Assembly (NCBI GenBank): GCA_000992345.1
Contig: LBUA01000003.1
Span: 1-47,369 of the forward strand
DNA length: 47,369 nucleotides
Source of the DNA: Parcubacteria group bacterium GW2011_GWD2_38_12
GTDB taxonomy: Bacteria > Patescibacteriota > Minisyncoccia > GWC2-36-17
Direction of reading: 5' to 3'
Shown: positions 4,284 through 7,323 of the stretch, piece after piece
Position numbering within the stretch: position 1 is the first letter of the stretch
How the letters are laid out: each line of letters opens with the position of its first letter
Translations under genes and position numbers: made by a program
The notes under the pieces: generated by a model
The model's database searches: none
Told to the model about the DNA's origin: nothing
Seen by the model: only the letters and a program-made list of their open reading frames with translations

Positions 4284-5459
4284 ATGAAAAAAATAGTTAT
4301 TATTCATTATCACGAAATAGCCTTAAAGGGGCGTAATCGCGCCTTTTTTGAGAATGTTCTTTTGGAAAATATTAAATTATCATTAAGGTCCGAAAAAGTT
4401 GACGATATTTTCAGGGTCTACGGAAGAATTATTGTCAGATTAAACGCCGACTCACGCATTGATTCAATTATAATAAAACTGGAAAAAGTCTTTGGGATTG
4501 CTTATTTTGCTGTTGGGTTTAAGGGATCAAGGGATTTAGAGGCGTTAAAAGGAGATATATGGGAAACATTAAAAAATGAAGAATTTGAATCTTTTCGGAT
4601 AACGACAAAAAGAGGCGACAAATCTTTCAAATACAGTTCTCAAGAAACGGATAAAATAATCGGTTCCCATGTCTGGCAGAAAATTGAAGAAGCCGGCAGG
4701 AAACCGAAAGTTGATTTAGAAAATTTTGACATCAATATCGTGATAGAAATATCCAGCCAAGGAACATTTTTCTATTTTAAAAAAATAAAAGGTCTTTCTG
4801 GTTTTCCTCCGGGAACTTCCGGCAAGGTAGTTTCTTTAATATCCGGAGGATTTGATTCGCCTGTGGCTACCTGGAAAATAATGCGTCGCGGAGCGGAGGT
4901 TATTTTTGTTCATTTTCACAGTTATCCGTCAACATCATTGGCATCCAAAGAAAATGTTAGAGAAATTATAAAAATTCTTACGCAATATCAATTTTATTCT
5001 AAAGCATATTTTGTGCCGTTTCTGGATATACAAAAATCAATAATGTTGAATTGCGAGCAGTCTTTTGGCGTGATTTTATATCGTCGGTTTATGATGCGTA
5101 TCGCGGAAAAAATTGCGAAGAATGAAAACGCGAAAGCGCTTATAACTGGAGATTCTTTGGGTCAAGTTGCTTCGCAAACATTGGAAAATATTGCAGTTGT
5201 TTCCAGCGCTATTGATTTGCCTATTTTGAGACCATTAATAGGAGAAAATAAAGAGGATATAATAAAGTTATCTCAAGAAATCGGAACCTTTGATATTTCT
5301 TCAAGACCGGTTGAGGATTGCTGCAGTTTATTTGTGCCAAAACACCCAAAAACGAAAGCCAGAGTGGAGGATGTTATGGAGATGGAAAAGAAATTGGATA
5401 TTGATGAGCTTATCAGAAGCGCTTTAGATAAAACAGAAGCAGAGATTTTTGATATCTAG
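4284..5459 (+). CDS. thiI: tRNA 4-thiouridine(8) synthase, short form without rhodanese domain
   Basis: EIALKGRNR..FE, THUMP region, PP-loop SGGFDS, TGDSLGQVASQT, LRPL, DCC. Confidence 0.95.
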   Translation: MKKIVIIHYHEIALKGRNRAFFENVLLENIKLSLRSEKVDDIFRVYGRIIVRLNADSRIDSIIIKLEKVFGIAYFAVGFKGSRDLEALKGDIWETLKNEEFESFRITTKRGDKSFKYSSQETDKIIGSHVWQKIEEAGRKPKVDLENFDINIVIEISSQGTFFYFKKIKGLSGFPPGTSGKVVSLISGGFDSPVATWKIMRRGAEVIFVHFHSYPSTSLASKENVREIIKILTQYQFYSKAYFVPFLDIQKSIMLNCEQSFGVILYRRFMMRIAEKIAKNENAKALITGDSLGQVASQTLENIAVVSSAIDLPILRPLIGENKEDIIKLSQEIGTFDISSRPVEDCCSLFVPKHPKTKARVEDVMEMEKKLDIDELIRSALDKTEAEIFDI

Positions 5460-5499
5460 CAATATTTATAAGGTTTATACAATAAAAGGCGCGCGCATT

Positions 5500-7323
5500 T
5501 TATTGATTCTTAGGAAGTTTTACCATATAGGTATTTTTTAGCTTATATCCCAGTTTTCTGTAATAGTTTCTCGCGCCGATTCCGGAGATAACTGCAATTT
5601 TTGAAAAGCCGAATTCTTTCTTTGCGATTTTTTCCGCTTCTTTTATTAATTTTCTTCCAAGGCCCAGGTGCTGCGATTTACCCCCTTTTTTATTTATTTT
5701 TTCCATTTGTCCGTAGGTATGCGCCTCGCGGATGATAGCGGTGTTTTGCAAGATTGGGAAGATGAAAGATGGCAGAATTATCCCGTGAGCGGGTTTGCGG
5801 CCATTTTTGGCATGGTCTCCGCTTAGCAAAGCGGAGCAAAAATGAGACGCATCCTCGGAGCCCGCGGCTGGGCGGGAGAGAATGAGCGAATGGGATAATT
5901 CTGCCATCTTTTCTTCCGTATTATTTATTCTTAATCTCAAAAGCGCGACCAATTTGTCGCTTTTAGTATCCTCAAAAGATAAAAATATCTCCCTTCCGCC
6001 AGAAGCTGAATAGTCTTTTCTTATAAGTTTTAAATTATGAGCTTCGGGTTTCAAGTCTTTTATTTCTCGGCATCTGATGCATCGGCATTGTTTGCCTTCT
6101 TTTGCCATTTCTTTATGAATAATTTCTCGCAAATTGGAAATTTTCCCGCCAGCTTCAATGCTCGGAGTGGGAATATCGCGAATGACGCGGACAACGCGGC
6201 AATATTCCGGAATTTTCGTTTTGGCGTTTTTTAGGATATTTATAATTTGTTTATCGGAATAGGGTTTATATTTGCCATTTTTATATAATATGTAAAGTGG
6301 TGTTCCTTTCAAAACTACGCAAGGATAAATTTTTAGCATATCCGGCTGGAAATCGGGATTTATAAATAATTCTTCAATCATTTTTTCATCACGTTTGGAG
6401 TTTGATCCGGGTAAGCCCAACATAATATGATAATTAATTTTAAACCCGTAATTTTTTAGCAGTTTTGTCGCTAAAATTGTTTCTTTGACGGAGTGTCCGC
6501 GGCTACATTTTTTTAAAATATTGTCATAAATACTTTGGACGCCGAGTTCAACGCGCGTGCATCCGTACTCGCGCATTTTTTTTATTTCTTTTTCATTTAT
6601 CCAGTCCGGCCGCGTTTCTAGCGTTAATCCAATAATCCTGTTTTTCGCCGTTTCATTTTTCTTTTGCGCGGCATCTAATCTTTTTAGTAAGTTTTTAATT
6701 TTCGCGCTTCTATCAAACTTTTCCTTGTTTTTAGTTTTCAGTTTTATTCGCCACGACGGATTAGTTTGATTTACTGCCTCAAAGCAGCGAAGAATAAACC
6801 AAATCTGATATTTTTCGGGTATTGCTGACCATGTTCCTCCGGCTATAATTAATTCAATCTTATCGGTTTTATGTCCTTGGGCGCAAAGAGACTCCAGGCG
6901 GGATTTTACTTGCCTATAAGGATCAAATTTATTGGTAATCGCGCGCATCACGGCCGGTTCATTGGAAAGATAGCTTTTGGGCATGCCTTTTTCTGTTGGA
7001 CAGTAGATGCATTTTCCCGGACATCCGAAATCCGGAGTGATGACAGTGATTGAGGCGATGCCAGATAATGTTCTGACCCTTTTTTTCAGCAGGATATCTT
7101 CAAGAGCGGAATTGGCTGTAATTTTTCTAGATTGGATGAGTTTGTGATAAACTGAAATGAGATCGGTATTTTTGGGAATACGGCTGGCATCAGTTTGCTC
7201 GGAAACATTTTTTAGGGATTGGCGTTTAATCTGGGAAAACTTAAATCCATTTAGCTTTTTATGCGCTAAAGCGGTAAAAATAATATTTTTTAGAACCCGT
7301 TGATTAATTGATTTATTTGCCAT
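5500..7323 (-). CDS. elp3: Elp3 radical SAM/GNAT tRNA U34 carboxymethyltransferase
   Basis: RTLSG, CPGKCIYCP, MPKSY..EPA, ETRPD, RVELGVQS, KIYP, QHLGLG, VISGIGARNYY. Confidence 0.95.
   Translation of the reverse strand: MANKSINQRVLKNIIFTALAHKKLNGFKFSQIKRQSLKNVSEQTDASRIPKNTDLISVYHKLIQSRKITANSALEDILLKKRVRTLSGIASITVITPDFGCPGKCIYCPTEKGMPKSYLSNEPAVMRAITNKFDPYRQVKSRLESLCAQGHKTDKIELIIAGGTWSAIPEKYQIWFILRCFEAVNQTNPSWRIKLKTKNKEKFDRSAKIKNLLKRLDAAQKKNETAKNRIIGLTLETRPDWINEKEIKKMREYGCTRVELGVQSIYDNILKKCSRGHSVKETILATKLLKNYGFKINYHIMLGLPGSNSKRDEKMIEELFINPDFQPDMLKIYPCVVLKGTPLYILYKNGKYKPYSDKQIINILKNAKTKIPEYCRVVRVIRDIPTPSIEAGGKISNLREIIHKEMAKEGKQCRCIRCREIKDLKPEAHNLKLIRKDYSASGGREIFLSFEDTKSDKLVALLRLRINNTEEKMAELSHSLILSRPAAGSEDASHFCSALLSGDHAKNGRKPAHGIILPSFIFPILQNTAIIREAHTYGQMEKINKKGGKSQHLGLGRKLIKEAEKIAKKEFGFSKIAVISGIGARNYYRKLGYKLKNTYMVKLPKNQ
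5765..5911. mobile_element. MITE-like element with 20-bp terminal inverted repeats, in frame within elp3
   Basis: aaagatggcagaattatccc (5765-5784) / gggataattctgccatcttt (5892-5911); GC-rich interior; 147 bp = 49 codons. Confidence 0.75.

Follow-up and report, generated by a model that had tools for sequence, protein, structure and literature searches.

A 147-nt segment of the Elp3 gene in the 674-kb CPR (Patescibacteria) genome of an ultra-small bacterium from groundwater, Parcubacteria group bacterium GW2011_GWD2_38_12, is probably a small, non-autonomous mobile element that was inserted recently. It belongs to a CPR family that is defined by its fold, and it appears to have settled in a permissive loop of the Elp3 GNAT domain, where it would be read through. 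The analysis covered a single stretch of 47,369 nucleotides (the window), together with related genomes and metagenome contigs.

The insert in Elp3

The 607-aa ORF carries the Pfam domains Radical_SAM, Radical_SAM_C, and GNAT (Acetyltransf_1). The features at the insertion are as follows (window coordinates):

5500–7323, minus strand: Elp3 gene (radical-SAM and GNAT tRNA-modification enzyme), an intact 607-aa ORF carrying the insert
5765–5911, plus strand: inserted element, 147 nt, Elp3 residues about 471–519; covariance-model match at 5766–5910, 163 bits
5765–5784, plus strand: 5′ arm of the closing stem P1, 20 nt
5892–5911, plus strand: 3′ arm of the closing stem P1, 20 nt
5757–5762, no strand assigned: host-side GGAAGA, partner of TCTTCC at 5912–5917
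5912–5917, no strand assigned: host-side TCTTCC, partner of GGAAGA at 5757–5762

The original prediction for 5757–5917, an element bounded by inverted repeats and kept in frame within the acetyltransferase domain, is confirmed as an observation. Its perfect 20-nt repeat (5765–5784 and 5892–5911) has arms that are 100% complementary, the stem extends as described across a 2-nt bulge into the host-side hexamers, and the inner hairpin lies at 5817–5824 and 5829–5836. The interior is indeed GC-rich, with a GC content of 0.49–0.56 in the insert vs 0.26–0.46 elsewhere in the gene, and the length is a multiple of three, giving 49 stop-free codons. The host Elp3 frame is the sole frame running through the insert, and there is no transposase gene inside it. 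The region folds far better than shuffled sequences (z = −8.2 for the Elp3-sense strand, −6.2 for the plus strand of the window). The arm 20-mer has no third site in the window, and none of 100 shuffles gave any match.

Elp3 orthologues were found in 20 of 60 relatives, and all 20 align in two pieces, skipping query residues about 472–517. The alignment that had been proposed as a check defines an empty site, the segment being present in 0 of 19 and 0 of 18 aligned orthologues. It had also been considered that orthologues might share the peptide without the palindrome; all 18 aligned orthologues lack the segment. Elp3 of the same-genus genome G001 is empty at this position and reads LRLRILKPDSDLSDNIFPVLKN. 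Deleting 5765–5911 gives INNTEDIFPILQNTA, 15 residues where orthologues span 13–20, and restores ...TEDIFPILQN... with the orthologous spacing. Judged from this restored reading frame, the empty site would have been a near-palindrome, GGAAGA CA TCTTCC, on the sense strand.

An AF2 model of Elp3 (mean pLDDT 80) assigns residues 475–519 a pLDDT <50, flanked by confident strands at 458–466 and 528–536. The element probably landed in a permissive surface loop of the GNAT domain, between the LRLR and IIRE strands. Transcription and translation most likely run straight across it and give Elp3 about 49 extra, disordered residues; such translation would parallel that of Rickettsia palindromic elements (RPEs). 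As for an intein, Pfam gives radical-SAM and GNAT domains only, with no Intein/Hint match, and a Hint domain needs more than 49 residues.

A fold-defined family

The conserved part of the family is a five-helix interior with invariant unpaired motifs. In the Elp3 copy it comprises:

5786–5791, plus strand: TGAGCG word adjoining P1, conserved in alignments A4 and A6
5802–5809, plus strand: 5′ strand of P3, partner 5837–5844; helix 8, 97.4% paired, 8 of 8 pairs covarying
5809–5816, plus strand: unpaired GGCATGGT motif between P3 and P4, nearly invariant in the alignments
5817–5836, plus strand: P4 hairpin, whose sequence and length vary from copy to copy; helix 9, 8 of 8 pairs covarying
5837–5844, plus strand: 3′ strand of P3, partner 5802–5809
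5860–5877, plus strand: P5 hairpin with a conserved (C/G)GCTGG loop; helix 10
5878–5891, plus strand: GAGAATGAGCGA junction strand leading back into P1, invariant in the alignments and part of the 58-locus search pattern

The family fold consists of a P1 of ∼20 bp of free sequence, a tandem-G·A/GC box, and a three-way junction, of which one arm runs P2–P3–(GGCAUGGU bulge)–P4 and the other is the P5 hairpin with its CGCUGG loop, followed by the invariant GAGAAUGAGCGA strand. The TGAGCG word can form a GC/GC helix with 5883–5888, probably flanked by tandem G·A pairs, and pairs 29–30/248–249 of this helix are paired in 99.3% of cells. Position 5877 is A here and C in other strains (runs X5–X7 and L154), where it closes one more P5 pair.

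Covariation is seen in all helices of the family. Both sides change in 51 of 52 pairs, a level reached in 0 of 500 shuffles, and 92.6% of cells are paired vs 37–49% with slid partners. Once an element has inserted, compensatory changes maintain its fold, even inside coding sequence: orthologous copies in miaA carry 10–11 compensated pairs vs 1–3 broken ones, in MiaA proteins that are 57–71% identical.

This fold is favoured on the window plus strand, so the element is antisense to Elp3. In a strand-symmetric count, transition mismatches in P1 give 47 G·U on the window plus orientation vs 20 on the other; helices P3–P5 show 37 G·U vs 6 A·C in an alignment that is model-fitted, and minimum free energy is lower on the plus orientation in 62 of 68 copies. 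Compensatory retention of the fold after insertion, with no target duplication at this site and no transposase found, points to a single-stranded functional form (RNA or ssDNA). The fold is presumably what the mobilising or host machinery recognises, and, whether as RNA or as ssDNA, it would act in the strand antisense to Elp3.

The genome holds four copies, the Elp3 copy included, whose arms differ and whose interior is common to them. From Parcubacteria-type genomes we collected 76 matches, representing 69 distinct copies; the exact core pattern alone finds 58 loci. All 69 copies have a closing stem of about 20 bp. The family is present in 8 of 61 relatives and, in a phylum-wide sample, in 3 of 151 genomes (own genome counted in both), with 13 copies in a genome of another class. 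Its spread across CPR/Patescibacteria is patchy, at 1–13 copies per genome. In viral contigs, searched as a sign of phage carriage, the core pattern had no match. The literature outside subscription journals and bioRxiv supplements yielded no description of CPR elements of this kind; the family is apparently both large and undescribed.

The original prediction proposed finding copies through the terminal repeat. No other copy shares the arms of the Elp3 copy, which were absent elsewhere in the window, the genome, and the metagenome collection; the family signature is instead the structured interior. Scanning metagenome contigs for arm plus core start, as a trace of a donor copy, recovered the same Elp3 locus only. 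Derivation of the arms from pre-existing hairpins at the target was rejected, one subfamily sharing ∼20-bp arms at eight loci in two genomes. Core identity among copies of one genome is 72–85%, and copies that have diverged this far yet still fold are as compatible with a functional RNA family as with a transposon.

Long ORFs contain 11 of the 69 copies; the reading frame is preserved in each, and both orientations occur. No gene is broken by any of the 69. Hosts are Elp3, miaA (twice independently), glycosyltransferases, and others. Stop codons are underrepresented in each of the three reverse-strand frames (33–36 of 68 copies open vs 11% in shuffles), which fits translation.

Mobility and competing explanations

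Three sites that are filled here (Elp3, the pgk–recJ spacer, and the site upstream of murJ) are empty in G001, whose single copy sits at another place. No Obg orthologue was found in G001, and the Obg site was left out of this comparison. Among 10 aligned genomes, five carry a copy in miaA, one of which (L074) has the opposite orientation and unrelated arms; because of those arms, L074 was rejected as an inversion of the miaA copy.

Transposition is evident in genome G156, where near-identical long-form copies have conserved ends, GTAACTNCTCAC, and 8-bp target duplications (8/8 in L122 and L126, 7/8 in L124). Elsewhere, L080 matches at 8 of 9 positions, and visible duplications vary slightly in length, from 7 to 10 bp. 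Across all short-form copies, six reach 7 or more of 9 flank matches vs 2.3 expected, a weak signal. The Elp3 copy has no target-site duplication, its best flank match being 5/9, and no repeat at a 147-nt period.

The search for a cognate transposase, another proposed check, found none. All-against-all BLAST of ORFs around the 69 copies returned housekeeping genes only, with no recurrent neighbour. Five element-bearing genomes were searched: reverse transcriptase, TnpB, and IS66 DDE were each found in 0/5, and the Y1 transposase PF01797 in two (G027 and G022), with none in the present genome (G000), G001, and G057. No parent IS with ends matching the family was found. One candidate for a parent IS, L151, has another interior behind a G156 end; it stops at a contig start, occurs nowhere else, and was rejected. 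The idea of a protein-invading, RPE-like MITE holds in substance: insertion, multiple copies, presence/absence between congeners, and in-frame relatives are all observed, while a shared terminal repeat, a target duplication here, and a transposase are not.

A bolder version of the insertion scenario, which we consider rather improbable, is a new mobile module of structured nucleic acid in which the one-strand three-way-junction fold, and no terminal DNA sequence, is the active entity, kept by selection at each site, also within the coding parts of essential genes. The fold could then be the ligand of a structure-specific integrase, an RNA that undergoes processing at its ∼20-bp stem, or an RNA with a catalytic or guide role, and the G156 long form would be such a module riding inside a conventional transposon. 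If true, an RNA-shaped parasite or symbiont would be remodelling CPR proteins.

Among the rivals to a mobile element, the best surviving, though still unlikely, is a family that exists chiefly as a functional structured RNA, such as a small RNA that RNase III releases at the long P1, a 3′-end or operon-spacer module, or an antisense RNA. The fold would then serve the host or the RNA and not transposition, new copies would be occasional, and the landing in Elp3 would be a tolerated accident. Covariation in all helices, unpaired motifs that are invariant across classes, compensated orthologous copies even in coding sequence, and the strand singled out by G·U asymmetry and lower free energy all agree with this. 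So does the placement of 33 of the 58 non-genic copies, which in one orientation lie −15 to +50 nt from a stop codon, as does the age of within-genome copies, which are old and diverged with no recent burst. The genome also encodes RNase III, whose usual substrate is a perfect stem of 20–26 bp.

However, a family that is present in just 8 of 61 relatives and, phylum-wide, in 3 of 151 genomes is no housekeeping RNA. Rfam 15 offers no family: chance-level matches only (E of 0.7 or more) were returned for 5600–6100 at E up to 10, and 20 related loci gave no match on the element at E up to 0.1. Both orientations occur inside genes, and relative to the flanking gene the favoured strand is in most cases the antisense one; for 33 of the 58 non-genic copies, a transcript of the host gene would carry the less favoured strand, which weighs against the insertion reading too. 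A simple scan found no promoter-like site for the plus strand upstream of the Elp3 copy, and the conserved ends and target duplications of G156 show true transposition. The functional-RNA and mobile-element explanations overlap, and the former does not exclude the latter.

The original prediction also allowed for a structured RNA insert, either excised or bypassed. In that case the protein would lack the 49 residues. Such intron-like removal from the Elp3 message, or a ribosomal hop, would have the long P1 bring two exon ends together; P1 does juxtapose the exact boundaries of the insertion, and a 147-nt deletion restores orthologue-like sequence. Unusual insertions are known in CPR rRNA genes, which lends the idea some precedent. 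We nevertheless consider it very improbable. Neither the region nor the 20 related loci contain a group I/II intron, ribozyme, or other Rfam match, and a frame that is open in 11 of 11 in-gene copies, with no gene interrupted by any of the 69, would be needless if the insert were spliced. The occurrence of both orientations in genes is not explained by one splicing-competent RNA fold, and the stop depletion of the reverse strand fits translation. Four apparent cases of interrupted genes, taken as a possible sign of splicing, proved to be adjacent genes.

We can practically dismiss an assembly or chimera artefact, or an old lineage-specific Elp3 loop without insertion: inverted repeats can cause misassembly, and Logan contigs break inside the element, but both junctions are covered by independent contigs from four runs of four other studies (one of them, X7 record 18, crossing the whole element over 5316–6400 with one difference), a further metagenome contig agrees with 99.9% identity across 2453 nt at the Elp3 locus, the same-genus Elp3 orthologue lacks the segment, and the interior recurs at three further loci of this genome and at dozens outside it. 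As for an empty allele, the contigs of the four runs, which drop rare variants, contain no joint that skips the insert.

Significance and comparison with known systems

CPR genomes rank among the smallest and most gene-dense on record, and little work has been done on the mobile DNA in them. On the preferred reading, a mobile element inserted into Elp3 and read through, structured repeats of a selfish or semi-selfish kind enter the reading frames of essential CPR enzymes (Elp3, MiaA, and glycosyltransferases), as RPEs do in Rickettsia. What is unusual is that evolution keeps the nucleic-acid fold and neither the terminal sequence nor the encoded peptide; paired substitutions that maintain the fold alter residues on both sides of the insert. 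The family offers a tractable case for recognition of a repeat by shape and for the question of whether a repeat acts as RNA. A practical consequence is that protein alignments containing such inserts are inflated and distorted, and that short-read assemblies of CPR genomes break at them.

SINE- and retron-like RNAs are comparable by analogy only: they share a conserved RNA-like fold, free-sequence stems, strand preference, and 7–10 bp duplications, whereas our family lacks a poly-A or other 3′ tail and its genomes a reverse transcriptase (0/5). We know of no SINE-like element of this kind in bacteria. REP/BIME and REPIN sequences, mobilised by RAYT (Y1 HUH) enzymes, are likewise single-strand hairpins recognised by shape, intergenic, often located just after stops, and without target duplication. 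REPs are 20–40 nt long with a conserved GTAG-type head and, to our knowledge, do not reside in frame in proteins; the CPR element, unlike them, is a 140-nt three-way junction, and G000, G001, and G057 encode no Y1 transposase.

The Elp3 copy resembles MITEs in its length (under about 300 bp), terminal inverted repeats, dispersed copies, and filled and empty sites. It departs from them in lacking terminal repeats shared by the family and a parent IS, conserved outer ends being confined to G156, and a fixed-length target-site duplication, which is seen in relatives (G156 and L080). The G156 long form, with conserved terminal repeats and a fixed 8-bp duplication, looks like a MITE mobilised by a DDE enzyme. 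Classical MITEs (Correia/CREE of Neisseria, ERIC, BOX, and RUP), as described in part in PMC10969869, are similarly short non-coding repeats with terminal inverted repeats, found in spacers and sometimes in ORFs, co-transcribed with their neighbours, and with a long stem that is a likely RNase III target. In the short form, unlike in classical MITEs, terminal repeats are not conserved between copies and internal helices covary; the latter sets the family apart, since a dsDNA transposase substrate does not need covariation.

The closest functional likeness is to the RPE families (Ogata et al. 2000, as summarised in PMC10969869), palindromic elements lying in frame in Rickettsia proteins. According to that summary, RPEs are also about 100–150 bp long, palindromic, and hairpin-forming, have no transposase of their own, and occupy a tiny, gene-dense genome. 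Many RPE copies, as there summarised, lie in frame in unrelated housekeeping genes at spots predicted to tolerate loops; correspondingly, 11 of our 69 copies are in frame in unrelated genes, and the Elp3 insert forms a low-confidence loop between confident strands. The host phylum differs, and the likeness is functional, by description and not by sequence. Unlike RPEs, the CPR family has a copy-specific closing stem, a conserved multi-helix interior, invariant unpaired motifs, a clear strand preference, compensatory retention of the fold, and one lineage with conserved ends and 8-bp duplications. Through the two kinds of element, reduced genomes would have gained new protein loops convergently.

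The insert in Elp3

Radical_SAM, Radical_SAM_C and GNAT domains identify the 607-aa open reading frame at 5500..7323 (minus strand) as Elp3. Its GNAT part contains an insert of 147 nt, a multiple of three (49 codons), as originally predicted.

Features of the Elp3 locus
5500..7323, minus strand: Elp3 gene
5765-5784 and 5892-5911: inverted-repeat arms of 20 nt each, fully complementary
5817-5836: inner 8-bp hairpin in the interior of the insert

The other predicted sequence features, namely the perfect arms, their lengthening by GGAAGA/TCTTCC past a 2-nt bulge and the GC-rich interior with its hairpin, were also recovered. GC content is 0.49-0.56 in the insert vs 0.26-0.46 in its surroundings, the arm 20-mer is confined to its two positions (shuffles with any match: 0/100), and the insert region folds far better than shuffles on both strands (z = -8.2 and -6.2). 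An assembly artefact, one of the refuting cases named in the original prediction, was ruled out by contigs from four runs of four other studies covering both junctions, one outside contig running through 5316-6400 with a single difference from the window, and by a metagenome contig 99.9% identical to the window over 2453 nt.

Elp3 was detected in 20 of 60 relatives, and all 20 matches were split into query residues about 5-471 and 518-602, contiguous in the subject. Ortholog alignment, proposed earlier as a check for the empty site, showed the segment in 0/19 orthologues in one alignment and 0/18 in another, including the same-genus genome G001 (70% identical). Deleting exactly 5765-5911 gives ...LRLRINNTEDIFPILQNTAIIRE, with an orthologue-like linker of 15 residues (13-20 in orthologues). 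In an AlphaFold2 model built with the orthologue alignment as input (mean pLDDT 80, pTM 0.78), residues 475-519 have pLDDT below 50 and lie between confident strands 458-466 and 528-536, which places the insertion site in an inter-strand loop of the acetyltransferase domain. Both the cysteines of the radical-SAM domain and the acetyl-CoA motif are preserved, and the model suggests that the copy landed in a permissive loop.

A structured repeat family

Three further sites in the genome (674 kb, 96% complete) match the interior of the insert, without its arms, at 72-85% identity.

Further genomic copies
Contig C14: between a peptidase-like gene and obg
Contig C8: upstream of murJ
Contig C22: between pgk and recJ

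All four copies have a conserved core in common, with the closing stem and inner hairpins particular to each. A covariance model derived from them matched exactly these four in their own genome and detected the family in 8 of 61 relatives (own genome counted). Copies occur in 3 of 151 genomes of a phylum-wide sample (own counted), one genome of another class having 13. Loci matching the exact core pattern numbered 58, the titles of their records naming Giovannoni-, Terry-, Jorgensen- and Harrisonbacteria, Parcubacteria, Patescibacteria and "uncultured Candidatus Saccharibacteria"; viral contigs had no matches. Many element-bearing records bear the last title; because one or more of them reproduce exactly the copy of G001, a member of the window's own genus in a Parcubacteria class, such titles are doubtful and probably generic labels. 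In total, 76 hits (69 distinct) were collected.

Components of the family fold
P1: closing stem of about 20 bp, free sequence
TGAGCG/TGAGCG box: conserved
Three-way junction
Junction arm: P2, P3, a nearly invariant GGCAUGGU bulge and a variable P4 hairpin
P5: hairpin with a CGCUGG loop
Invariant strand: GAGAAUGAGCGA

The TGAGCG/TGAGCG box would form two G-C pairs flanked by tandem G.A. Across 69 copies, standard pairs fill 92.6% of pair cells vs 37-49% with slid partners, and 51 of 52 pairs show both-sided change, values reached by 0/500 shuffles; the alignment is model-fitted, which favours the fold, and the margin is very large. Rfam 15 has no similar entry for the window region (E up to 10) or for 20 diverse loci (E up to 0.1), and a literature search returned no family-like description for Patescibacteria (CPR), only papers on Rickettsia palindromic elements (RPEs) and on MITEs in general.

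Individual copies show further variation. Position 5877 is A in the window and C in contigs of three other runs and in the metagenome contig; C adds one P5 pair, so the fold of the window strain is slightly weakened. In G001, the P2 region of L042:1501-1665 contains a further perfect palindrome of 22 nt, so that one palindrome sits inside another. At about 1500-1650 of L072 / L052, two model hits, one partial, overlap on opposite strands, an arrangement suggestive of two head-to-head copies or of one copy inserted into another.

Copies within genes and signs of mobility

Long ORFs host 11 of the 69 copies, all with the reading frame kept.

In-gene copies
Elp3
miaA, four related genomes: sense orientation
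miaA, fifth genome: same loop, opposite orientation, unrelated arms
Glycosyltransferase
O-antigen-ligase-like membrane protein
770-aa membrane protein
holB-like protein
One protein without assigned kind

Its orientation and unrelated arms mark the fifth-genome miaA copy as an independent event; miaA lacks the element in the window's own genome (G000), in G001 and in relatives G002, G006 and G057. The other four miaA copies occupy one common site in host proteins 57-83% identical. Compared two by two, the copies show 10-11 base pairs in which both sides are replaced and pairing is retained, 0-1 wobble changes and 1-3 disrupted pairs, except for the closest two (L057/L066), which have zero compensated pairs. 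An alternative to fold upkeep here is that the element re-inserted repeatedly at this site. Since the compensatory substitutions alter residues on either flank of the insert, they argue for upkeep of a nucleic-acid structure rather than of the peptide. MiaA of L057 and L066 also has about 25 added residues just upstream of the element, missing in the other eight, which may be a second insertion in the same loop.

Depending on which of its three frames is read, the Elp3-sense (reverse) strand is open in 33-36 of 68 copies, against 11% in shuffles and ~19% estimated for reverse-strand composition; the corresponding + strand counts are 19, 11 and 2 of 68. Per reverse frame, about half of all copies are open, non-genic ones included. 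Within the conserved core, stop triplets are absent from all three frames of the Elp3-sense strand, and the opposite strand has three conserved TGAs. Four candidates for element-broken genes, obtained by in silico deletion, were all simply adjacent genes. The excised insert of the original prediction is disfavoured by the in-frame position of 11/11 in-gene copies and the lack of broken genes among those candidates. Judged from sequence, these patterns agree with ribosomes reading through the element and with only frame-keeping insertions having survived, and do not fit splicing; the Elp3 insert is probably translated.

The Elp3, pgk-recJ spacer and murJ-upstream sites are filled in G000 and empty in G001, whose sole copy sits downstream of recJ. 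In G156, another element-bearing genome, several copies are near-identical over about 205 nt with common outer ends starting GTAACTNCTCAC, a word occurring 17 times there vs 0 in a control. These long forms (L122-L134; about 205-240 nt) show 8-bp target duplications, with flanking repeats matching at 8/8 in L122, 8/8 in L126 and 7/8 in L124; G156 also has short copies without GTAACTNCTCAC ends. L132 combines the 5' arm of one subtype with the 3' arm of another, suggesting recombination between copies. At the start of G156 contig C38 (L151:1-106), an outer end is followed by a non-repeat interior that the contig start cuts off after 87 nt. It could be the end of a parent insertion sequence; the rest of G156 and the metagenome collection gave no second occurrence.

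Short copies outside G156 give a weak duplication signal (six with 7 or more of 9 matches vs 2.3 expected; L080 8/9, L061 9/10 by eye). The Elp3 copy has no target duplication (best 5/9). Host GAAGATG there runs straight into AAAGATG of the arm (5757-5771; 6/7 alike), a microhomology that might bear on duplication-free integration. The arm copies and cognate transposase sought on the original prediction's advice did not emerge, and the family was recognised by its interior instead: the window, genome and metagenome collection yielded no possible donor sharing these arms, and no recurrent neighbour gene surrounds the copies. Among five element-bearing genomes, RT, TnpB and IS66 DDE were each found in 0/5 and a Y1 transposase in 2/5, G000 not among them. 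The Elp3 stretch appears to be a copy of a non-autonomous mobile element, and a young one, since 26/26 stem pairs are intact.

The favoured strand and comparison with known elements

In a strand-symmetric count of P1 transition mismatches, 47 are G.U on the window + orientation and 20 on the other; P3-P5 gave 37 vs 6 in the same direction (model-fitted). For 62 of 68 copies folding is more favourable in the + orientation, the mean difference being 8 kcal/mol. Going by established mutational skews, deamination acting on the coding or leading strand would give the opposite bias, and the antisense strand of Elp3 is thus the one on which the fold is favoured.

For 33 of 58 non-genic copies, the 3' end of the favoured strand lies within -15..+50 nt of a convergent gene's stop codon, so the host message carries the opposite strand; only 10 of 58 follow a co-directional stop, and certain upstream genes terminate 2-4 codons into P1. 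No promoter-like site was found on the + strand upstream of the Elp3 copy. With the favoured strand antisense to Elp3 and mostly opposite to the host message, the arrangement is awkward for an RNA reading of the element. Long stems such as P1 are typical RNase III substrates, and RNase III is encoded in the genome. What marks the family is a shape on one strand, which may act as RNA or as single-stranded DNA.

The protein-invading MITE originally proposed holds as regards insertion, multiple copies, frame-keeping and RPE-like behaviour; no cognate transposase was found among the enzymes sought. Unlike a textbook MITE, the family does not have its ends as its signature, its Elp3 copy lacks a target duplication, and its whole interior covaries. 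Rickettsia palindromic elements, as reviewed in PMC10969869, are nearest in behaviour to this family.
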